This document shows, piece after piece, positions 7,940 through 53,827 of a stretch of DNA of 64,000 nt. The DNA comes from an uncultured delta proteobacterium (GTDB lineage Bacteria; Desulfobacterota; Desulfobacteria; Desulfobacterales; Desulfosalsimonadaceae). The translations under genes and the position numbers were made by a program. The DNA lies in NCBI GenBank assembly GCA_963826785.1, contig CAWGYD010000008.1:256001-320000 (forward strand). Direction: 5' to 3'. How positions within the stretch are numbered: position 1 is the stretch's first letter; every line of letters begins with the position of its first letter. A model generated the notes under the pieces. It was given only the letters and a program-made list of their open reading frames with translations, had not been told where the DNA came from and searched no databases.

Positions 7940-8062
7940 ACACCCCCCTGGCCCCCCTCAAGGGGGGATTTCTATCGAGAGTGCCCCCTCGTTGAGGATT
8001 CCTATATGGAGAGTATCCGTAAATCATTTCAATTCCCCCCTTGAGGGGGGCCAGGGGGGTGT
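7940..8062. repeat. Family B repeat doublet with 29-bp perfect inverted arms; the right arm overlaps the glnD 3' end
   Basis: ACACCCCCCTGGCCCCCCTCAAGGGGGGA (7940-7968) is the exact reverse complement of 8034-8062. Confidence 0.85.
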
Positions 8063-25069: not shown

Positions 25070-25303
25070 TTATCCGGCAATCCAGCTCAGGACCTCTTCC
25101 TTTTTGGGAACTTTCCCCACCGATTTGACCTGTCCGTCGATGATCACGGCCGGGGTTCCCATCACCCCGTGTTTGGCAATTTCCATCATATCGGACACTT
25201 TTTCGACAGATGCGTCAATGCCGCTTTCCGCAACCGCTTCTTCTACGATTTTTTCCGTTTTCGCGCATTTGGCACAACCCGGGCCCAATACTTTGATTTC
25301 CAT
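25070..25303 (-). CDS. Small redox-active disulfide protein (Thioredoxin_3 type)
   Basis: MEIKVLGPGCAKC...GVMGTPAVIIDG, 77 aa. Confidence 0.9.
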   Translation of the reverse strand: MEIKVLGPGCAKCAKTEKIVEEAVAESGIDASVEKVSDMMEIAKHGVMGTPAVIIDGQVKSVGKVPKKEEVLSWIAG

Positions 25304-25341
25304 TTTTTCCTCCTTCATCTTCATAAAGCCATAGATGCATT

Positions 25342-25412
25342 GCACCCCCTTTAATTCCCCCCTTGAGAGGGCATCCTTTAATTCCCCCCTTGAGGGGGGG
25401 AAGGGGGGTGTT
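25342..25412. repeat. Family B repeat inside the ars operon
   Basis: Two tandem tttaattccccccttgag units followed by gggggaaggggggtgtt. Confidence 0.8.
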
Positions 25413-25423
25413 GGCAAGAGCAC

Positions 25424-27377: not shown

Positions 27378-29007
27378 ATGGCCAACCATAACGGCAACGG
27401 GAAATCCCTCGAATCCTGGATCTGGGATGCCGCCTGTTCCATCCGTGGGGCCAAGGACGCGCCGAAATACAAGGACTACATCCTCCCGCTGATCTTCACC
27501 AAGCGCCTCTGCGACGTCTTCGATGACGAGCTGAACCGCATCGCCGCCGAGGTCGGCTCGCGCAAGAAGGCCTTCCAGCTCGCCAAAATGGATTGGCAGC
27601 GGGCACGACGACAAGACTGCAAAGATGCCGCTTCTATTCTTTACCCCTCGTGCCGGACGATCCCGAGCAGCCGGTCTGGTCCGTCATCCGCAAGCTCTCC
27701 GACAAGATCGGCGAAGGCGTCACCACCCACATGCGGGCCATCGCCCGGGAAAACCCGCTGCTGCAGGGCATCATCGACCGCGTCGATTTCAACGCCACCA
27801 CCCACGGCCAGCGCGACCTCGACGACGACCGCCTCTCCAACCTCATCGAGGCCATCAGCACCAAGCGCCTCGGGCTCGACGACGTCGAGGCCGACATCAT
27901 CGGCAAGAGCTACGAATACCTCATCCGCAAGTTCGCCGAGGGCGGCGGCCAGAGCGCCGGCGAGTTCTACACCCCGCCCGAGGTCGGCACCATCATGTCC
28001 CGGGTCCTCCAGCCCGAGCCCGGCATGGAAATCTACGACCCCACCTGCGGCTCCGGCGGCCTCCTCGTGAAATGCGAGATCGCCATGGAGGAAAAACGGA
28101 GGGCGGGTTTTCCAACCCGCCATTTGAAAGGCGGACAGGAATGTCCGCCCTCCTTTGCCCCCCTGAAACTGTTCGGCCAGGAATACACCCCCGAGACCTG
28201 GGCCATGGCCAACATGAACATGATCATCCACGACATGGAGGGCCAGATCGAGATCGGCGACACCTTCAAGAACCCCAAATTCCGCAACAAGCAGGGCAAA
28301 CTCCGCACCTTCGACCGCGTCGTCGCCAATCCCATGTGGAACCAGGACTGGTTCACCGAGGCCGACTACGACAACGACGAACTCGACCGCTTCCCCGCCG
28401 GGGCCGGCTTCCCCGGCAAATCCTCCGCCGACTGGGGCTGGGTCCAGCACATGCACGCCAGCCTCAATCCGGAACCGGCCGCGCCGCCGTCGTCCTCGAC
28501 ACCGGCGCCGCCTCCCGCGGCTCGGGCAATGCCGGCACCAACAAGGAAAAAACCGTCCGCCAGTGGTTCGTCGACCACGACCTCATCGAGAGCGTCCTCT
28601 ACCTGCCCGAAAACCTCTTCTACAACACCACCGCCCCGGGCATCGTCCTCTTCCTCAACCGGGCCAAGCCCAAGGCCCGAAAGGGCAAGGTCTTCCTCGT
28701 CAACGCCAGCCAGATCTTCGAAAAGGGCGACCCCAAGAACTTCATCCCGGACGAGGGCATCCAGCGCATCGCCGACACCCTCATCGGGTGGAAGGAAGAG
28801 GAAAAACTCAGCCGCATCGTCGATCACGCCGAGCTTGCGAAAAACGACTACAACATCTCCCCCAGCCGCTACATCCACACCAGCGACGCCGAAACCTACC
28901 GGCCCATCGCCGAGATCGTCGCGGAACTGAAAGCCATCGAAGCCGAGGCAAAAGAGACCGACAAGGCCCTTAGCAAAATCCTCAAGCAACTCGGAATCGG
29001 CGCATGA
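27378..29007 (+). CDS. hsdM: Type I R-M methyltransferase HsdM (apparent frameshifts near 27600-27640 and 28470; in-frame REP insert at 28098-28153)
   Basis: LESWIWDAACSIRG, GEFYTP, motif I DPTCGSGG, motif IV ANPMW, LPENLFYNT and NDYNISPSRY, spread over three frames. Confidence 0.9.
28098..28153. repeat. RAYT-type REP doublet (family A), in frame within hsdM
   Basis: GGAG-GGCGGGTT-ttcc-AACCCGCC...GGCGGACA-ggaa-TGTCCGCC-CTCC, translated RRAGFPTRHLKGGQECPPS. Confidence 0.9.
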
Positions 29008-30549
29008 AGATCTTCATCAGCAGCGTGCAAAAGGAATTTGCCGCCGAGCGCAAGGCCCTGGCCGCTTACCTTGCAGGCGATCCGCTGCTGCGGCGCTTTT
29101 TCGAACACTTTCTGTTTGAAGAACAGCCGGCGGCCGATCAGCGGGCCGACCAGTGCTACCTCGACGAGGTGGATCGCTGCGATATCTATCTCGGTATTTT
29201 CGGCAATGATTATGGCCGGGAAGATGCCCAGGGGCTTTCACCGACACACTGTGAGTTCAACCGGGCCACCGAAAAGGGCAAGTGCCGTCTGATCTATGTC
29301 AAGGGGGCCGATGACAGCGCCCGGCATCCGAAAATGAGCGCCCTGATCCGTGATGCCGCAGGCAGCCTGATCCGGCGCCGGTTCAATTCCGCCGAGGAGC
29401 TGATCGCCGGGGTGTATGCGAGTCTGGTCAGGATTCTTGAAGAGCGCGAACTGATCCGTTTCGGACCATTTGATGCCACGTTCTGCAGAAACGCAACGCT
29501 TGACGACCTTGATGAAGACAAGATCACCCGTTTTCTGGTGCTGGCCCGGCGCGGCCGCAATTTCCCCTTGCCGGGGGATACGCCGCCGCATGAGGTGCTG
29601 GCGCATCTCAATTTGCTCGACAAGGGACGGCCGACCCATGCCGCTGTTTTGTTGTTCGGCAGACAGCCGCAACGTTTTCTGATCACCTCCGAAGTGAAAT
29701 GCGCCCATTTCCACGGCTATGAAGTGGCCAAACCCATCCCTTCCTATCAGGTGTACAAAGGCACGGTTTTCGATCTCGTGGATCAGGCCAAGGATTTCGT
29801 GCTCTCCAAGATAGACCTGTGGGTGGGAACCCGGGCGGAAAGCACCCAGGCGCCGACGAAATACGAAATTCCGCAGGAAGTTGTCGCCGAAGCCATCGTC
29901 AATGCCGTCGTGCATCGCGACTACACCAGCAATGCCAGCGTCCAGGTCATGCTCTTTAAGGATCGGCTGGAAGTCTGGAATCCCGGCACCCTGCCGCCGA
30001 CCCTGACCCTTGAAAAACTGCGCGGCCCGCATGCCTCCGTTCCGCATAATCCGCTTCTTGCCGAGCCCATGTACCTGACCAAGTACATCGAACGCATGGG
30101 AACCGGTATCCGTGACATGATCCGGCGATGCCGGAAGGCCGGGCTTGCTGAACCTGAAATCAGGCTTGACGGCGGGTTTTTTGTGTTGACGATCCGGAGG
30201 AAAAAGACTGAGCCGGGGACCAGTCGGAACCAGGTCGGGACCAGGTCACCCCGCAAGATACCCACCAGTCGACGGTACCAGTCACCCCACCAGTCGCGGA
30301 GGTTACGTCTCTCGACTCTCGCCTGCGTCGGATCAAGTGGCCCTCTTGGCAACGCCGAAATTCTTGAAGATCTATGGTCTTAAAGATCGTACGCATCTCC
30401 GTGAGCATTATATCGACCCAGCCCTTGCAGACGGACTGGTGGAGCGTACCATCCCCGACAAACCCACCAGTCGCCTCCAGAAATACCGGCTCACGGAAAA
30501 GGGACGCGAATTACTGGAGCGATTGGAAAAGGGAAAGGGCCGGTCATGA
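29004..30549 (+). CDS. DUF4062 + RecG-C-like/HATPase_c_4 + winged-helix protein (frameshifted near 30250-30340)
   Basis: KIFISSVQKEF, EAIVNAVVHRDY, NPG.L, HNPLLA, IERMGTGI, an ACCAG(G)TC repeat linker, and C-terminal TIPDKPTSRLQKYRLT in ORF 30337-30549. Confidence 0.75.
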
Positions 30550-31933
30550 AAAACATTGTGGCTACAGGACAAGTCGAGGCCCAAGAGGCCCAAGTCGGAC
30601 ACCCACCAGTCAAGTCAACAGTCGGCGGGCAAGGATTTGAAGAAGATTTTGGAGAAGATCGGGGTATGAGTGACTGCACGTATCAAGCTTTCACGAATGT
30701 TGCCAGAACTTGTGAATGGCCGGCGATCGCTTTCGAAATCAACAGGGCGTATGACGAAGCTCGTGACGGGACATCGTCCGTTCTATCAAGCGAAAAAAGA
30801 TTCTATGGAGCCACTTATCCAAACGAACGGATCAGATTGCATGTGCGCCGAAGAATGCTGTCGGAAAGCCAGGCGACATTCTTGTCGCGAACGCGCGCCG
30901 GTTGGAGCGACAAATCTTGAACCAAAGATCGTTGCTTGTATCTGGACGTGGCATCGCTGCAGTTCGGGACAAATGGCATCGATCCGCGATTTTCTCTATT
31001 GGCTCAATTCGTAAGACCTTAGATGTGAAGCTATATTATCGACAGCCTCGGGTCAAGTGACTGACTATCACAGGCGAATCAACTAGCAATCACAGTTGGC
31101 TGAATTGCCGATCAATGCACTCCCATCCCACTCCCCGAGCAAAAGAAGATCGCGCACATCCTTTCGACGGTGCAGCGGGCGATCGAAGCGCAGGAGCGGA
31201 TCATTCAGACCACCACCGAGCTGAAAAAGGCCCTCATGCACAAGCTCTTCACCGAAGGCCTCCGCAACGAACCCCAAAAACAAACCGAAATCGGCCCCGT
31301 CCCCGAAAGCTGGGAGGTGGTGCCGTTGTCGATGTCTGCCGATTCCAAAGTGGAGGCACTCCCATCCAAGAAGAACCCGGAATTCTGGCAAGGAACCATT
31401 CCTTGGGTTTCGACCAAGGACATGAAACGCCCCTGCATAACGAAGTTCCAGACCAATCCCCCAAGAAGCACTCGAGAATCGAAAGCAACTTGCACCCGGC
31501 GGTTTCGCTCTTAATCGTCGTTCGACGAGGAATGATCTTGGCAAAGACTGCCGGTCGCGCTCGCAGAAGTTCCGATGGCTATCGAATCAAGAATGAAGGC
31601 CATCATTCCACCAAAGGCTCAAAATCCGCTCCGTATTTCTTTCATCTACTTCAAAACATTACGAGGCAACCTGTCAGAAAGATCGGACGCATCCGGGCAC
31701 GCGAACCGCGCAACTCAATGAGGCCATCGAGATCTCGGAGTTCAAAATCCACTTCCCGACTTGGACACGCAGGAAGAGATCGCATCAGCAATCAAAGCGC
31801 TCGAACGAAAACGAGCTTCATGAACAGAAAGCGAAAACGACTCCAAGACCTCTTCCGCACCCTCCTTCACGAACTGATGACCGCGAAAACCCGCGTTCAG
31901 AACCTTACTTTATCCGAGGATAGTTATGAATGA
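30546..31933 (+). pseudogene. hsdS: Type I R-M specificity subunit HsdS with intact conserved helices and scrambled TRDs
   Basis: [22 protein letters not shown]...[14 protein letters not shown]...[14 protein letters not shown] (about 31130-31325), [20 protein letters not shown] and LQDLFRTLLHELMT. The DNA between these blocks has no continuous frame. Confidence 0.85.
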
Positions 31934-32384
31934 TCCAAGAGGCTCATATTGGAGGCGCTGGGACCTCCACGTGCATACGCCATACTCCGAGCTCAACAAT
32001 GGCTTCGGCGACGACTTCGACACCTACGCTAAGGAGCTTCTCACTCGGGCTAAGGACAACGATATCGCATGCATTGGAATCACCGATTACTTTTTGATCG
32101 ATGGTTACAAGGCTTTGAGAAAAATCGTTGATGAAGACACCAAGCTGGAGGCCCTCCTCGACCCGTCCTGTGCGACGCACGCAAAGAAGGTCCTTTACTT
32201 GCCGAATATCGAATTTCGCTCTTCAACGATCGTTCGCTATCGTGATGCCGGGGGAAGACTCACGATAGCCGGGTCGACTTTCACATCCTCTTCGCTGATT
32301 CAGTGCCATCTGAAACAATTGAAGAGGACTTCCTGCGCGAGCTCAAGTTTTCGGCCGATGGAGCACCCGCTGCACCTGATGTGA
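31926..32384 (+). pseudogene. Truncated PHP-domain N-terminus of a PHP + AAA-ATPase (TrlF/Ppl-like) protein
   Basis: RGSYWRRWDLHVHTP, IGITDY and PNIEFR, continuing in another frame (RVDFHILF...EEDFLREL) and then stopping. No ATPase follows. Confidence 0.7.
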
Positions 32385-32517
32385 GCTCGAATTTCAAGAA
32401 ACCTTTTCCGATATAGAGATTCCAGGGTTTAACCCTGCGGAGAATTGATGATCGATAACTTCTAAGACAGGGCGATAAGACCTCTTCAAGTTGGTATCCA
32501 TGCATAAGTAGGAAGCT

Positions 32518-32643
32518 ATGCCTAAACCCGGAGAGCACAAAACAGTCCAGGCCCGTATCCTTGCATATGCGCAAGAGACTGGTCGTTTGTTTTTAATGAC
32601 AAAAAATGGCTTCATAAAGTCGACATTTATGACGAATAAATGA
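32518..32643 (+). pseudogene. Duplicated remnant of the hsdR 5' end
   Basis: MPKPGEHKTVQARILAYAQETG versus the real hsdR start MKPGEHKTVQARILEYAEAIG at 33112. Similarity ends near 32583. Confidence 0.85.
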
Positions 32644-32670
32644 CAAATATATACTTCTAAATCGTCATAA
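32627..32670. promoter_or_regulatory. Candidate autoregulatory operator of the XRE gene
   Basis: TTATGACGA (32627-32635) and TCGTCATAA (32662-32670) form a perfect inverted repeat in AT-rich DNA about 40 nt upstream of the gene. Confidence 0.55.
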
Positions 32671-32709
32671 GTTTACGATATACAACCTCCAGATAAAGGA
32701 GGGCTTCTG

Positions 32710-33057
32710 ATGAAAATTGAAGGATTATTAACGGACGAGGCGATCCTGACGGAGCTGGGCGGGCGCCTGGCCCAGCGTCGGTTGGAACTTCAGCTTACGC
32801 AAGAGATGCTGGCGGAGCAGGCAGGAGTATCGAAGCGGACCGTGGAACGTATCGAGGCCGGGGCCACGACGCAAACGACGACATTGATCCGGATTCTGCG
32901 GGTATTGGCGCTGTTAGATTGGCTGGAAATACTGGTGCCCGAAGCCGGACCCAGTCCGATGGATCTGGTCAAGCTGAAAGGCAAGGTGCGGAAGCGGGCC
33001 AGCGGCAAGCGGAAGCCTACGGACAAGGGACCGTGGCGGTGGGGTGATGAAACGTGA
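32710..33057 (+). CDS. XRE-family HTH regulator (HipB-like)
   Basis: LTQEMLAEQAGVSKRTVERIEAG, with a strong AAGGAGG RBS. Confidence 0.88.
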   Translation: MKIEGLLTDEAILTELGGRLAQRRLELQLTQEMLAEQAGVSKRTVERIEAGATTQTTTLIRILRVLALLDWLEILVPEAGPSPMDLVKLKGKVRKRASGKRKPTDKGPWRWGDET

Positions 33058-33111
33058 ATACGACGGCAGCGGTAACAAAACACAGGCTGCCCTGAGACTG
33101 GAGCTCCTTAA

Positions 33112-36100
33112 ATGAAACCCGGAGAACACAAAACCGTCCAAGCTCGGATCCTCGAATATGCTGAGGCCATCGGCTGGACTGTCGTGCCCCGCGAGGAAGC
33201 CGAGGAAAGGAGGGCGGGTTTTCCAACCCGCCATATGCAAGAAAATGGCGGACAGGGATGTCCGCCCGCCGTTAAGGCGGGTTGGAAAACCCGCCCTCCC
33301 TTGTCTCTTTTCTTCGACGACCTGCTCGACGCCAAGGTGCGGGAATTCAATCCGCGCTATGCCGAGGCCGAGGGCGCCTTGCCCGGGCGGTTCCGCCATC
33401 TCCACACCGACATCTACGGCAACCGGGAATTCGTCGAGCATCTGCGCAACCGGGGCAAATTCTTCGACCACGAGGAAAAGCGCGAGCGCGACCTGATCCT
33501 GATCGATTACGACGACCCGGCGAACAACGTTTTCGAGGTCACCGAGGAGTGGGCCTTTCACAACGGCCATTACGGCACGCGGGAGGATGTGGTCTTTCTC
33601 ATCAACGGCATTCCGGTGCTGGTGATCGAGTGCAAGAACGCCAACAAGGACGAGGCCATTGCCCTGGGGGTGGACCAGATCCGCCGTTACCACCGCGAGA
33701 CGCCCGAGCTGTTCGTGTCGCAGCAGCTATTCACCGCCACCGACGCCATCGGCTTTTCCTATGGGGTGACCTGGAACACGGTGCGGCGCAACATTTTCAA
33801 TTGGAAGCTAACGGAGGGCGGGTTTTCCAACCCGCCGCATACAAAGCTCGTATGGCGGGTTGGAAAACCCGCCCTCCGTTAACACGCACTCCTTTTTCAA
33901 TCCGCATGGTGAGATCGACAAGAAGGAGCATCGATTGCCCCATTGGCAGCAGGGCGAGGCATGGGTCTTTGTGACGTGGCGACTGGGTGATTCTCTTCCG
34001 AAGGCGAAGCTGGATCGGTGGAAGGAGGAACGCGCGATATGGCTCTCACATCATCCCGAACCGTGGGATGAAAAGACCGAAGCCGAGTATCACGAGCGTT
34101 TTTCCAGCCAGATCGACGAGTGGCTGGATCAAGGGAGCGGGTCGTGTGTGCTGAAAGACCCGGCGAACGCGAAGATGGTGGCGGATGCGTTGAGGCATTT
34201 CGATGGTGAGCGATATGAGATCGCGTCGTTCGTGGTGATGCCGAATCACGTTCACGTGTTGTTCCGACCGCTGGGCAAACACACGCTGCCGGAGATACTG
34301 AAGTCGTGGAAAGGATTCACGGCGCGGGAGATCAACAAGCGGATCGGGAAGACGGGAGCGCTTTGGCAGGATGAGTATTGGGATCGGTTGATTCGGAATG
34401 AGCGGCACTTTTTCAAGGTGGCGGAATACATCCGGGAGAATCCGGTGAAGGCAAAGCTTGAAGGAGGGGGCAGTTCATACGTGGAGGGCGGGTTTTCCAA
34501 CCGCCGTATGCAAAATTAGAATGGCGGACAGGAAAGTCCGCCCTCCTAGAGCATGGCGGGTTGGAAAACCCGCCCTCCGTTGACGTTCCCGGCCGACTGG
34601 AAGCAAAGGTCAAGACCTTCTGCGCCATCCCGCAGGTACTCGCCTTCCTGAAGGACTACATCGTCTTTGCCGAGAAGGACGAGGAGCTGAACAAATACAT
34701 CCTGCGCCAGCACCAGACCGGCGCGGTGGAGGCGGCCGTCGGCCGGGCCCTCGATCCCCGGCGCACCCGCGGGCTGGTCTGGCACACCCAGGGCAGCGGC
34801 AAGACCTTCACCATGATCAAGGCGGCGGAACGGCTTTTCCGCGCGCCCGAGGCGGACAAGCCCACCATCCTGCTGATGATCGACCGCAACGAGCTGGAAG
34901 ACCAGATGCTCAAGAACCTCGCCGCGCTCGGCCTGGGCAACCTGGAGCACGCCGGCAGCATCGCCCGGCTCAACCGGTTGCTGCGCGACGACTACCGGGG
35001 CATCATCGTGACGATGATCCACAAGTTCCGCGACATGCCGGCGGATCTCAACACGCGCGCAAACATCTACGTCCTCATCGACGAAGCCCATCGCACCACC
35101 GGCGGCGATCTCGGCAACTTCCTCATGGCCGGCCTGCCGAACGCCACCTTCCTCGGTTTCACCGGCACCCCGGTGGACAAGACCGCCTACGGCAAGGGCA
35201 CCTTCAAGACCTTCGGCTGCGAGGACGACCAGGGCTACCTGCACAAGTATTCCATCGCCGACAGCATCGAGGACGGCACCACCCTGCCGCTCTACTACCA
35301 GCTCGCGCCAAATGAAATGCTCGTGCCCGCACGAGACGCTGGATGCGGAATTCCTCTCCCTCGCCGAAGCCGAGGGCGTGGCCGACATCGAGGAGCTGAA
35401 CAAGATCCTCGAGCGGGCGGTGAACCTGAAGAATTTCCTCAAGGGCAAGGACCGGATACAAAAGGTGGCGCAGTTCGTCGCCGAACATTACCGCGAGAAC
35501 GTCGAGCCGCTCGGCTACAAGGCCTTTCTCGTCGGCGTGGACCGCGAAGCCTGCGCCCACTACAAGCACGCCCTCGATCAGTTCCTGCCGCCCGAGTATT
35601 CCGAGGTCGTTTACACCGGCAGCAACAACGACTCGGCCCTGCTGAAGGAATTCCACCTCGACCCGAAGAAGGAGCGGCAGATCCGCAAGAGCTTCGGCAA
35701 GCTCGACCAGCAGCCGAAGATCCTGATCGTCACCGAGAAACTGCTCACCGGCTTCGACGCGCCCGTGCTCTACGCCATGTATCTCGACAAGCCGATGCGC
35801 GACCACACCCTGCTGCAGGCCATCGCCCGGGTGAACCGCCCCTACGAGAACGAGGCCCGGGAGATGGTGAAGCCCCACGGCTTCGTTCTGGATTTCGTCG
35901 GCATCTTCGACAAGCTGGAAAAGGCGCTGGCCTTCGACAGCGACGAGATCAACGCCATCGTCAAGGATCTGAAGCTCCTGAAGGTGCTCTTCAAAAACAA
36001 GATGGAGAGATTTCAAGGGAGGGCGGACTTTCCAGTCCGCCTTGGAGAAGCAGACGCGGGTTGGAAAACCCGCGCTCCGTTCGAATTCAACGACAAGGAC

Positions 36101-36887
36101 GTCGATACCCTCATCGAGCACTTCCGCGATCCCGAGCGGCGCAAGGAGTTTTTCAAGGAATACAAGGAGATCGAGATGCTCTACGAGATCATCTCGCCGG
36201 ACGCCTTCCTGCGGCCGTTCATCAGCGACTACGGAACGCTCGCGGCCATCTATGCCGTTGTTCGGAAGGCCTACGCCAAGCGGGTCATGGTGGACCGGGA
36301 CTTCCAGAGAAAGACGAACGAGCTGGTGCAGAGGCATATCGGAACCAGCTATATCCTGCCCGTCGAGGACACCCTGGAAATCAATGAGGATACCGTAAGG
36401 TATATCGTCGATAAAAAGGGGGGCGACAACAGCAAGGTCATCAACCTGGTCAAAAGCATCGGAAAGGCGGCGGAAGAACAAAGTGACGATCCCTATCTGA
36501 TTGCCATGGCCGAGCGCGCGCGGGTTGTCCAGGAGGCATTTGAAGATCGGCAGGCCACTACGGCCGAAACGCTGGCCAAGCTGCTTCGCGAGGTGGAGGC
36601 GAACGAGGCCCGCAAAAAGGAACAGGCCGCCAAAGGAATCGACGGTCTGACGTTTTTCGTCTACCGCATGCTGGAGGATGCGAAGATCGGGAACGCCGAG
36701 GCCGTCAGCCGCAAAATCCGGGAGGCCTTTGTCGAAACGCCGAACTGGAAACGCAGCGACAGCCAGCTTCGGGAGCTGCGCAAGAAGGTTACTTTTGCCA
36801 TCTTTGCGGAATGTGACGACCTCGATCGCGGTAACCGCATTGGTGAATGATCTGTTCCGCGTACTGGAAAAGGCGGACAGGATTTAA
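33112..36887 (+). CDS. hsdR: Type I R-M restriction subunit HsdR containing an internal RAYT and REP inserts (indels near 33810-33880, 34500, 35327 and 36830)
   Basis: Nuclease motifs D-x-V..INGIPVLVIECK and QIRRY. Motor motifs HTQGSGKT, DEAHR, FTGTP, LTGFDAP and QAIARVNR. Confidence 0.92.
33209..33299. repeat. Family A REP triplet, in frame within the hsdR N-terminus
   Basis: Three GGCGG..CCGCC hairpins bounded by GGAG / CTCC, translated RRAGFPTRHMQENGGQGCPPAVKAGWKTRPP. Confidence 0.9.
33813..34578 (+). mobile_element. REPtron-like element: RAYT flanked by REP clusters (33813-33877 and 34483-34578), inserted in hsdR
   Basis: A REP doublet on the left and a triplet on the right flank an HUH transposase ORF. 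hsdR breaks after RRNIFNWK and resumes at GRLEAKVKTF in the same frame. Confidence 0.9.
33860..34519 (+). CDS. REP-associated tyrosine transposase (RAYT/TnpA-REP, Y1 HUH family)
   Basis: RLPHWQQ, FVTWRLGDSLP, HUH motif VVMPNHVHVL, WKGFTAREIN, WQDEYWDRLIR and catalytic YIRENP. There is no ATG start; the ORF opens on a TTG inside the REP. Confidence 0.92.
   Translation: MENPPSVNTHSFFNPHGEIDKKEHRLPHWQQGEAWVFVTWRLGDSLPKAKLDRWKEERAIWLSHHPEPWDEKTEAEYHERFSSQIDEWLDQGSGSCVLKDPANAKMVADALRHFDGERYEIASFVVMPNHVHVLFRPLGKHTLPEILKSWKGFTAREINKRIGKTGALWQDEYWDRLIRNERHFFKVAEYIRENPVKAKLEGGGSSYVEGGFSNRRMQN
36018..36078. repeat. Family A REP doublet, in frame within the hsdR C-terminal region
   Basis: GGAG-GGCGGACT-ttcc-AGTCCGCC...CGCGGGTT-ggaa-AACCCGCG-CTCC, translated GRADFPVRLGEADAGWKTRAP. 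Confidence 0.88.
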
Positions 36888-36890
36888 CTC

Positions 36891-37220
36891 ATGGACAACC
36901 CGGATACAAAGACGGCGTTCAAGGAGCGGGTTCGCCACTGGGCCGAAAAGCTCGATGTGAATGTCGTCTGGCTCGGGGTGCGGCCGATGAGCAACAAATG
37001 GGCCTCGTGCTCCACCGCCGGCCACCTGAACTTCAACGCCGATCTGCTCGACCTGAAAACCGAGCTGTGGGACTACGTCATCGTCCACGAACTGCTGCAC
37101 TTCTTTGTTCCAAACCATGGAAAACTATGGAAGAGCCTGATGCGCGCCCATCTGGGCGATTATGAGGCTTATGAAGCAGAGTTGAAGCAGATAGCGCAAA
37201 ACAAGCGCTTTCACAGCTGA
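36891..37220 (+). CDS. Short YgjP/DUF45-type metal-dependent hydrolase
   Basis: MSNKWASCS and DYVIVHELLH...NHGKLW. Commonly found after hsdR. Confidence 0.85.
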   Translation: MDNPDTKTAFKERVRHWAEKLDVNVVWLGVRPMSNKWASCSTAGHLNFNADLLDLKTELWDYVIVHELLHFFVPNHGKLWKSLMRAHLGDYEAYEAELKQIAQNKRFHS

Positions 37221-40685: not shown

Positions 40686-42321
40686 ACGATCATATACCAG
40701 CAGCCCGCCGCAACGGACAGGCCCCGGACGTGCTCCGGCCGGGAAAGACGCCTCCCCATGCGCTGCTTCTCCGATGCCGAAGAAGTCGATTTTGCCATCG
40801 TCGGCACCGGCGCCGGCGGGGGCACCCTGGCCGCAAAACTGGCCCAGTCCGGCTTCTCCGTGGTGGCCTTCGACGCCGGCCCCTTCTGGCGGCCCCTGGA
40901 GGAATTCACCTCGGATGAAAAGTCCCAGCAGAAGCTCTACTGGACCGACGACCGGATCAGCGCCGGAGAAAACCCCATCGAGTTCGGCCGGAACAACAGC
41001 GGTAAAGGCGTGGGCGGCTGCACCGTCCATTTCACCATGGTCTCCCTGCGCTTTCGCCCGGAGTGGTTCAAGGCCAGATCAAAAATGGGGTATGCGGTGG
41101 ACTGGCCCATCACCTGGGAGGAGATGTGGCGATACTACGAAGCGGTGGAGCAGGCATTAAAAATCTCCGGGCCGGTGCAACTACCCCTGGGGCCCGCCCC
41201 GGGGCCGCTACCCCTACCGGCCCCACGAGGTGAATGCCGCCGGACTGGTGCTGGGCCGGGCCGCCGATGCCATGGGAATCGCCTGGGCCCCCACGCCTCT
41301 GGCCACCATCTCCGCCCCCCGGGGGCGCGCCCATCCCTGCGTTTACCGGGGCTTCTGCCAGGTCGGGTGCTCCACCAATGCCAAGCAGAGCATCCTGGTC
41401 ACCCGGATTCCTGCGGCCATCAAAGCCGGGGCGGAGATCCGGGACAAATCCATGGTGGGCCGGATCGAGATCAATGATTCCGGACGGGCCACCGGGGTCA
41501 AGTACCACCGGGACGGCCAGTGGCGCTTTCAAAAAGCCCGTCATGTGGTGGTGGCGGGCTATGCCATCGAGACCCCCCGCCTGCTGCTCAACTCCGCCTG
41601 CCCCCCGTTTCCGGACGGGCTGGCCAACTCCAGCGGCCTGGTGGGCAAAAATCTCATGCCCCAGGCCAACCACGCGGTGTGGGGGATCATGGAAGACGAA
41701 ATCCGCTGGTACAAGGGGCCGCCCACCATGGCCATCACCGAGCACTGGAACTACACCGACACGGGCAAGGATTTTCCCGGGGGCTACTGCTTCCTCAGCC
41801 AGGGGCCGCTGCCCATCGACTGGGCCCACAGCGTGGCGGGCAAGCGGGGGCTTTGGGGGATGGCCCTGCGGGAGCAGATGACCCGGTACAACCACCAGGC
41901 GGGATTGAAGATCGTGGGGGAGGTGCTCCCCCGGGAGGAGAACCGCGTGGAGTTGTCGGACGAAACCGACGCCCTGGGGCTGCCCATCCCCAAGATCACC
42001 TTTTCCTATGGGGAAGAAGACAAACGGCTGCAGGCTCATGCCCTTGATTTCATGCGCCAGGGGCTGGTCGCTGCCGGGGGGAGCGACCTCTGGCACGAAT
42101 CGGGCACCGCCCACCTGCTGGGCACCTGCCGGATGGGAAACAGCCCCTCTTCCAGCGTCACCGATGCCGACGGCCGGACCTGGGATATTCCCAATCTCTG
42201 GATCTGCGACGGATCGCTCTTTCCCACCAGCGGCGGCGTGAACCCGTCATTGACCATCCAGGCCCTGGCCTGCCGCATGGCAGACCGGATTGTGGCCCAA
42301 TCCCGCCGGGGGGAAATTTGA
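40682..42321 (+). CDS. GMC-family FAD oxidoreductase (apparent +1 indels near 40757 and 41179)
   Basis: IVGTGAGGG, GVGGCT, CVYRGFCQVGC, ETPRLLLNS, HLLGTCRMG and NPSLTIQALA across three ORFs. Confidence 0.88.
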
Positions 42322-42393
42322 TGGCGCATGCTTTGCAAGGAACATACTCGGAAAGGGGTTTAAATAATTTCTTTTTTGTTTTTCGCAGGTCCG

Positions 42394-42590
42394 ACACCCC
42401 CCTTCGCCCCCCTCAAGGGGGGAATTGAGAGGGTGGGGCACCCTTCGAGGGGTGGAATTAAAGGAGGATGTCCCTCGAGGGAGGGAATAAAAGGGGGGTG
42501 CCCTTCGAGGGAGGAAATAAAAGGGGGGTGCCTCGAGGGAGGAAAGAGGGACATCCCTTGAGGGGAGGGGAAAGCGAGATATCCCCTCGC
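42394..42590. repeat. Family B repeat expanded into a tandem array of about 7 degenerate 24-31-bp units
   Basis: Units such as cccttcgagggaggaaataaaaggggggtg follow the ACACCCCCCTTCGCCCCCCTC head. Confidence 0.85.
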
Positions 42591-53612: not shown

Positions 53613-53771
53613 TGGGGTACCTCCTGATTTCTTTGTCAGCCGGCCTTTTGTTCCAAGCCGGCATTCTAAAGTTAGATGAAGCTGCGGCACTCCGATGAAA
53701 GCCGGAGTCTATAGCCAGCTGCTGAGTTCATGTCCACTAGTTCATGATAGATTTCTGTTTTCGCCGGCCCG

Positions 53772-53827
53772 ACACCCCCCTTCGCCCCCCTCGAGGGGGG
53801 GAATAAAAAGGGGGGGTGCCCTTCGCG
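53772..53827. repeat. Family B repeat
   Basis: acacccccc ttcgcccccctcgagggggggaataaaaaggggggtgcccttcgcg, nearly identical to the head of the 42.4-kb array. Confidence 0.8.

Follow-up and report, generated by a model that had tools for sequence, protein, structure and literature searches.

A RAYT transposase and its REP hairpins in the reading frame of HsdR: a likely passenger of a mobile type I restriction-modification operon

In inteins that carry homing endonucleases, a nuclease domain is found in frame at a single position of a conserved host protein, and filled alleles occur among empty ones. The REP-associated tyrosine transposases (RAYTs), which act on repetitive extragenic palindromes (REPs) and on REP doublets forming hairpins (REPINs) in the REPtron or RAYT-REPIN system (E. 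coli TnpA-REP, PDB 4ER8; family NF047646; class 2 TnpA-Y1, PMC6006769), are described as extragenic, vertically inherited and absent from mobile elements (Bertels and Rainey, bioRxiv 2021.07.10.451892; PMC5581495). Long fusion proteins were discarded by Quentin 2018 (PMC6006769), where REPs inside tnpA-REP genes of subclass 2.4 are also reported, and Di Nocera 2013 (PMC3733652) covers intragenic GTAG/CGTC REPs and the Rickettsia palindromic elements (RPEs), with one N-6 DNA methylase of O. terrae in its supplement. We analysed a 64,000-nt stretch of DNA, called the window throughout, from an uncultured delta proteobacterium of the Desulfosalsimonadaceae (assembly GCA_963826785.1, contig CAWGYD010000008.1, positions 256,001 to 320,000), in which a RAYT flanked by REP hairpins interrupts hsdR of a type I restriction-modification (R-M) operon.

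An initial annotation of the window had reported five hairpin clusters, at 28098, 33209, 33813, 34483 and 36018, and a pattern search recovered all five at those coordinates, with 12 REP units among them. The clusters at 33813 and 34483 are the ends of the RAYT that interrupts hsdR, and the annotation had missed that the RAYT itself is an in-frame passenger of that gene. We consider it reasonably probable that the RAYT and its REPs, carried in the hsdR frame, form an extra and independently folded HsdR domain that copies REP doublets and passes between species as a passenger of a mobile R-M operon. Taken singly, translation of the RAYT as an extra domain of HsdR is likely, as is its travel between species on the type I R-M operon. 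The features concerned are given below in window positions.

28098 to 28153, no strand assigned: REP doublet in the HsdM loop after motif I; 21 residues versus 9 in empty alleles
33112 to 33807, plus strand: 5' part of hsdR (endonuclease domain); Pfam HSDR_N; 95% identity to empty allele P0002
33209 to 33299, no strand assigned: REP triplet at HsdR site A; 33 residues versus 18 in empty alleles; surface loop in the structural model of the related locus L008
33808 to 34596, plus strand: RAYT and REP cassette at HsdR site B; 798 nt between anchors versus 27 nt in empty alleles
33813 to 33877, no strand assigned: 5' REP doublet of the cassette, coding the N-side linker
33884 to 34450, plus strand: RAYT (Y1 HUH transposase) domain; PF01797; His-Val-His at 34247 to 34255, catalytic Tyr codon at 34427 to 34429
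34483 to 34578, no strand assigned: 3' REP triplet of the cassette, coding the C-side linker
34597 to 36887, plus strand: 3' part of hsdR (motor and helical domains); Pfam SWI2_SNF2, ResIII, T1R_D3-like
36018 to 36078, no strand assigned: REP doublet at HsdR site C; 28 residues versus 15 in empty alleles; inter-helix loop in the model

The 5' doublet of the cassette forms a 27-nt perfect inverted repeat with 34555-34581, and public contigs from other organisms contain the cassette joints 33807-34597 with 18 other bases. Searching GTDB genomes with the RAYT gave 79 loci, and in 46 of these HsdR sequence adjoins it at the same junction, on one side or on both. In all 40 loci apart from the window (L027 included) that had both HsdR anchors and the RAYT between them, the cassette was 696-1005 nt long and a multiple of 3; among the record titles are Verrucomicrobia, Gammaproteobacteria, Betaproteobacteria, Chlorobiaceae, Desulfatiglandales, Nitrospirales, Dehalococcoidia and Flavobacteriales. 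At site B, empty alleles have 27 nt, and their HsdR has 973 residues at 93-97% identity, versus ~1,220-1,350 residues when filled. The HsdR frame was open to the C-terminus in 28/31 filled versus 45/47 empty alleles, all six HsdR motifs were kept in 27/31 versus 42/47, and the filled HsdR of L001 and L024 scored above the TIGR00348 cut-off. These alignments indicate that the nuclease and motor motifs of the host and the catalytic motifs of the RAYT are kept in relatives, and that the cassette occupies a single site, at the end of the endonuclease domain, with linkers coded by REPs. The junctions occur in several phases, and the linkers vary freely in length and sequence. Among 77 loci selected by HsdR rather than by RAYT, site B was filled in 6, held other inserts in 8 and was empty in 63, and among 113 proteins it was filled in 10, held REPs only in 2, other inserts in 10 and nothing in 91.

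The window RAYT scored 83.4 bits against NF047646 (cut-off 80), and five fused relatives fell just below that cut-off at 69.5-78.1 bits. It carries NHVH (HuH) and YIRENP (Y---NP), and its NHVH, WQ and YIRENP motifs resemble those of subclass 2.7. His-x-His was present in 33/33 RAYTs (32 by pattern and one as His-Ala-His) and the Tyr..NP pattern in 31/33, while the median ratio of nonsynonymous to synonymous substitution (dN/dS) was 0.106 over 451 of 528 pairs and 0.142 in the 46 unsaturated pairs, indicating that the embedded RAYT is under purifying selection. Its best HUH fold match was PDB 4ER8 (E 4e-6, TMt 0.60), obtained with the RAYT part of a first model built from a shallow alignment, in which the RAYT was confident and HsdR poor (mean predicted local distance difference test score, pLDDT, of 54). 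For HsdR this model was superseded by an AlphaFold model of L008, residues 1-1050 (mean pLDDT 86.8, predicted TM-score 0.74), with nuclease, RAYT and motor all folded confidently and pLDDT <50 only in linkers 229-250, 264-268 and 456-477 and at the cut end. Its best fold match was EcoR124 HsdR (TMt ~0.6), site B aligning to about residue 228-230 of that protein, and HsdR sites A and C were loops on its surface, which agrees with the earlier proposal that the REPs sit in tolerated loops. The HsdM doublet falls between two blocks alignable to PDB 7VRU. The model predicts that disordered REP-coded linkers leave both folds intact, with the RAYT as a separate domain. E. coli TnpA-REP is a monomer (PMC3479197), and a single tethered RAYT domain is therefore plausible.

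Compared with described REPtrons, this element shares the HUH and Y..NP motifs, a 4ER8-like fold and a single copy per genome; inverted REP doublets with a tetranucleotide foot stand on either side of the gene, the REP type is tied to the RAYT lineage and, in some hosts, dispersed and mostly non-coding doublets occur. It differs in lying in frame inside hsdR and other genes without a stop of its own, in crossing phyla on an R-M island whereas described RAYTs are extragenic and vertical, and in its foot, since the GT[AG]G expected of a REPtron is absent here and GGAG stands in its place; the string GGAG does not occur in the main texts of PMC3733652 and PMC8266576. Intragenic GTAG/CGTC REPs and RPEs are likewise doublets translated as loops of 20-30 residues, often in DNA-handling proteins, but there the repeat alone is intragenic, whereas here the transposase is too, and different phyla carry the repeats at the same fixed positions in one operon. 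As in inteins, a nuclease domain stands in frame at one HsdR site with filled and empty alleles mixed; unlike inteins, the site is a surface loop and the nuclease is of HUH type. As to homing, the data show a weak differentiation peak and no co-conversion tract in partial correlations. Intein splicing was rejected as the insert begins and ends with widely varying residues and lacks conserved splice-junction residues, so the domain probably stays in the protein. IS200/IS605 elements (IS608, ISDra2) resemble the cassette in fold family, subterminal hairpins and a 27-nt inverted repeat as bounds, and differ in having Y...Q rather than Y..NP, where the RAYT also has one copy per genome and no clean empty site, host codons having been replaced. 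An IS200/IS605 identity was accordingly rejected (NF033573 32 bits versus cut-off 55; Y..NP, not Y---Q; one close copy in the genome). Four distant Y1-transposase-like genes lie elsewhere in the genome (C4:322926, C4:236894, C6:851075 and C6:215257), with 26-33% identity over 76-93 residues and none of the locus's REPs nearby.

Each REP unit consists of a GGAG foot, an 8-bp stem and a TTCC loop, and most units are arranged as head-to-head doublets. In the window 11 matches to the pattern were found versus 0.54 expected, 10 of them inside the clusters and the remaining one a loose long-loop match at 41553; two degenerate units, 33247-33270 with an altered foot and 34483-34505 with one stem base short, bring the total to 12, and fold z-scores ranged from -4.1 to -11.8. 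We scanned the whole genome (4,427,239 bases, 11 contigs) with six probe units and found no copy outside 28098-36078 at ≤3 mismatches and one at 4, and a structural scan gave 10 units, all within the locus. The cognate REPs are thus not dispersed in this genome, which bears out the earlier description of RAYT-type REPs confined to R-M genes, and across genomes of the host's class the REP appeared in 3/300, each time as a single loose match. Compensatory stem changes, which the annotation had stressed, are not taken as evidence of selection because the structural scan demanded stem pairing and REP subtypes arise by copying. An identical unit is translated in different frames and from both strands, which supports its view that the hairpin and not the encoded peptide is conserved; the three peptides it had quoted do lie in the HsdM and HsdR reading frames.

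The three REP-only clusters sit at sites reused across phyla, with near-identical REP peptides at the same sites in L002, L008 and L013. REPs outside site B were found in 29/40 RAYT loci versus 4/63 empty loci (3/6 RAYT loci within the HsdR-selected set), the HsdM site was filled in 9/11 versus 0/20, and 52/72 clusters outside site B lie in hsdR, hsdM or hsdS homology, which makes up 28% of the DNA. The coarse stem type equalled that of the cassette in 27/30 loci, kin among these not being independent. This enrichment, the R-M placement and the match in stem type together suggest that a RAYT acting nearby probably made the REP-only clusters at some time. The annotation had placed such seeding in this locus; here it stands only for the past, since the same sites and peptides occur in other phyla and close hsdR was found in 0/36 genomes of the same family, so that the inserts most likely arrived with the island and were probably not seeded in the window genome. 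Its suggestion that the clusters are former RAYT landing sites is supported only for the cassette site, where 2 of 113 alleles have REPs only; for the HsdM loop there is indirect support, since the corresponding loop of a type ISP enzyme (P0213) contains a whole RAYT. Alignment with homologues gave longer peptides than in empty alleles, with host loop residues replaced rather than simply added to: 9-18 host residues are replaced for a net gain of 12-15. Among 120 longer matches no RAYT was found at site A, site C or the HsdM site except in a deletion product, P0138, which joins site A directly to the RAYT with the nuclease deleted. Rearrangement at REPs, also suggested earlier, is thus seen in relatives, and deletions or duplications ending at hsdR REP clusters were noted in P0138, L007, L017, L038 and L154. 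P0137 was considered as a RAYT in HsdM and rejected: rearrangement has made it a chimera of hsdM and hsdR, and its site-B junction is the usual one.

Site B and site A also host at least two unrelated repeat-like inserts without a RAYT (for example L080, L087, L117, L123, L134, L151, P0004, P0022, P0024 and P0031, among others), and the Pro-Gly junction of most RAYT-filled alleles recurs in 8/10 non-RAYT inserts; several small elements seem to use the site-B loop as a common landing site. In L041, L045 and L060 the RAYT lies just upstream of an hsdR with empty site B, amid long REP arrays, possibly a step before or after embedding.

REP copies per genome differed widely among 39 carriers, with 59-234 in six, 28-38 in two and ≤16 in 31, and confinement to R-M genes, a feature of the window genome, is therefore not one of the family. 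The embedded RAYT was the only match at 1e-15 in 5/6 REP-rich genomes, the sixth (G091) adding a partial duplicate in hsdR, and it was the only PF01797 match in both G081 (68 REPs) and G091 (59 REPs). Of 16 dispersed clusters examined in G091, in regions taken from the first-listed matches, 15 were near copies of the cassette 5' doublet, and 15 had no more than 61 open codons on their shorter side, so that the clusters are mostly non-coding. These REP-rich carriers look like classic RAYT-REPIN systems, except that the transposase lies within another protein, and their repeats suggest that the embedded RAYT likely still spreads its REPs. By analogy with E. coli and group 3 TnpA-REP, whose chemistry comprises hairpin binding in single-stranded DNA, foot-guided nicking and phosphotyrosine strand transfer (PMC3479197, PMC8266576), the RAYT domain would bind the REP hairpin in single-stranded DNA as a monomer, nick at a foot-selected dinucleotide (predicted to be CT by the guide model) through a phosphotyrosine and then move REP doublets. 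In a compact operon, only in-frame insertions in surface loops would survive, which would give the recurring sites in HsdM, HsdS and HsdR.

We then compared the histories of cassette and host gene. On a flank tree of 90 anchored loci (full coverage required; duplicates and L027 removed), the filled state needs 18 changes, at least 6 of them forced by starred branches. REP type took 6 changes on the RAYT tree versus 14 on the hsdR tree (15.1 when shuffled, on either tree), and rank correlation was 0.63-0.75 from flank to flank versus 0.27-0.54 from flank to RAYT. All six approximately unbiased (AU) tests, in which a clade was transferred between the RAYT and hsdR trees, gave rejection (p 3e-49 to 0.03; groups picked after the trees were seen). 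Together the trees indicate that cassettes are decoupled from the hsdR flanks and move as a unit, and they may be swapped among hsdR alleles by recombination. RAYT domains are 80-94% identical across several phyla. A filled-type junction, the expected trace of precise excision, was found in 0/91 short site-B alleles. The window hsdR flanks have low dN to close relatives (0.013-0.04) and a short terminal branch. The island is probably a recent arrival in this genome with its REPs unspread; the REP would have spread along with the R-M island.

The locus is a type I R-M operon comprising hsdM, a DUF4062/HATPase cargo gene, hsdS, relics, hsdR and a YgjP-like gene; its remaining features are as follows.

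27378 to 29007, plus strand: hsdM (type I methyltransferase); Pfam HsdM_N and N6_Mtase; DNA alignment with four relatives
29004 to 30549, plus strand: cargo gene with DUF4062 and HATPase_c_4 within the operon; no REP; one frame break near 30271
30546 to 31930, plus strand: hsdS; many 1-nt indels in the assembly
31926 to 33111, no strand assigned: hsdS-hsdR interval with a truncated TrlF-family ATPase start, a relic hsdR 5' end at ~32521-32590 and an HTH_3 gene
36891 to 37220, plus strand: YgjP-like metallopeptidase gene, last of the operon; Pfam match

In this assembly hsdM lies in three frames (26 extra bases near 27590-27640, 2 extra near 28476), and hsdS shows 37 gap openings, nearly all of 1 nt, and 53 mismatches over 799 columns against the open hsdS of L124. 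The cassette has two frame breaks, one in its 5' spacer and the other in the unit at 34483, with net zero shift, and hsdR is broken again at 35325 and near 36830. With hsdM, hsdS and hsdR each broken by indels, frame preservation over whole genes is unreadable from the window alone. The assembly contains indel errors: elsewhere on this contig a frameshift splits leuS (G000:C8 ~17670), and ~216/4,781 coding segments carry a frame-switch signature by a rough heuristic with false positives. Almost all breaks at the locus are of 1 nt and most of them add a base, the pattern of raw long reads, and we infer that most are unpolished long-read errors in a low-coverage island. Four public sequencing runs compared with the locus showed only alleles of other organisms and therefore permit no judgement on the window's breaks or expression.

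Several points weigh against an in-frame, mobile and active RAYT domain. In the RAYT-selected set, 33/79 loci lie outside hsdR, and the 40 filled loci came mostly from the RAYT search, with kin that are not independent. The window hsdR has at least four frame breaks while rpoB, rpoC, secA and valS are intact in the same assembly, so that the R-M locus is far more damaged than the core, and the window organism was not found in public sequencing runs (best share of words 0.17). The 31/39 carrier genomes with ≤16 REPs include 2 with none by strict pattern; G062, G079 and G083 hold other Y1 proteins (nine of their loci were examined, one with a single REP nearby), and a since-lost free RAYT possibly made the dispersed copies. 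The AU groups were chosen post hoc, saturation is higher and GC content lower at RAYT third positions (GC3 0.68 versus 0.80-0.83), by which the apparent decoupling is inflated, and the two RAYT halves correlate at only 0.49 with each other.

The same RAYT clade also occurs in frame within LeuRS (P0224), a type ISP enzyme (P0213, in the loop after methyltransferase motif I), Eco57I-like enzymes, PglX, ArsC, MoaE, HPPK and a peptidase; if the LeuRS host is the only leuS copy, that fusion must be tolerated. The loci with in-frame RAYTs outside HsdR include L062, L065, L070, L073-L075 and L209-L212, with BREX PglX-like protein, MoaE and ArsC among the hosts. A broader and more tentative idea is that of a class of protein-embedded transposases in which RAYTs, inserted in frame together with their hairpin ends into surface loops and never spliced, act from within their host, with mobile R-M enzymes as cross-phyla vehicle and homing target, and seed new REPIN populations throughout each genome they reach.

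A true homing element, whose RAYT nicks empty hsdR at site B and copies itself by gene conversion in the manner of an intein endonuclease without splicing, seems unlikely to us. It would fit the single fixed site, the scattered presence on the flank tree, the selection on catalytic motifs, the close RAYTs in more distant backbones (L020/L025 0.075 versus 0.214; L019/L023 0.145 versus 0.293) and the filled-versus-empty differentiation, which is highest beside site B (0.093 and 0.054 versus mostly 0.01-0.05; L161, L045 and L041 left out). However, partial correlations sought as a sign of a co-conversion tract ran from -0.16 to 0.16 and did not peak at the junction, leaving homing driven by the RAYT no more than a possibility, and ordinary recombination with a large pool of empty alleles yields the same trees. 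Only 6/77 hsdR-selected loci and 10/113 proteins are filled, junctions occur in several phases, the empty site offers no REP hairpin for binding, and unrelated repeat types use the same loop.

Somewhat less likely still is a domesticated defence module, in which the RAYT would aid the HsdR motor, for instance by cutting hairpins or single-stranded DNA exposed in translocation, and be kept for host benefit. Long-term purifying selection on the RAYT, its frequency in defence proteins (HsdR, type ISP, Eco57I-like, BREX PglX) and the published argument that RAYT persistence needs host benefit (bioRxiv 2021.07.10.451892) would suit such a role, but LeuRS, ArsC, MoaE, HPPK and a peptidase, which also host this clade, have no DNA motor, most close hsdR alleles lack a RAYT (91/113 empty), and the linkers vary freely in length and sequence. 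We give little credit to the view that in the window genome the RAYT is a separate gene that broke hsdR, with R-M dead and REP frame preservation a matter of chance or history, for although hsdR, hsdM and hsdS are all broken as assembled beside four intact core genes, the cassette length is still a multiple of 3, the flanks have low dN and a short terminal branch, the breaks look like those of raw long reads and affect leuS too, and, even if true here, it would leave 40 in-frame relatives unexplained.

Coding REPs had already been published, and the gene-embedded, horizontally travelling RAYT-REP element is a real phenomenon wider than that first reported for this locus. In the literature covered we found no description of a RAYT nested in HsdR or another gene, and papers or supplements outside that coverage could hold one. 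Annotation hides such fusions, as databases label the proteins HsdR and the family survey dropped fusions. Current accounts, in which RAYTs are immobile, intergenic and avoid mobile DNA, leave the start of REPIN populations in new lineages and the retention of RAYTs unexplained; an active RAYT in frame on a horizontally mobile restriction subunit would, if this reading is true, give a route for that start. Empty and filled HsdR, at >90% identity to each other, form natural matched pairs usable for studying RAYT function, homing and effects on restriction, and the four tolerant loops map where type I subunits accept insertions.

A second, unrelated hairpin family with a C-run and a G-run has several copies in the window, at 795-839, 7940-8062, 25348-25412, 42380-42530 and 53758-53825 (repeat families D3, D7, D8, D11 and D15). 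One of these hairpins overlaps the start of an open reading frame at 25070-25423, and another copy lies directly 3' of leuS on contig C8.

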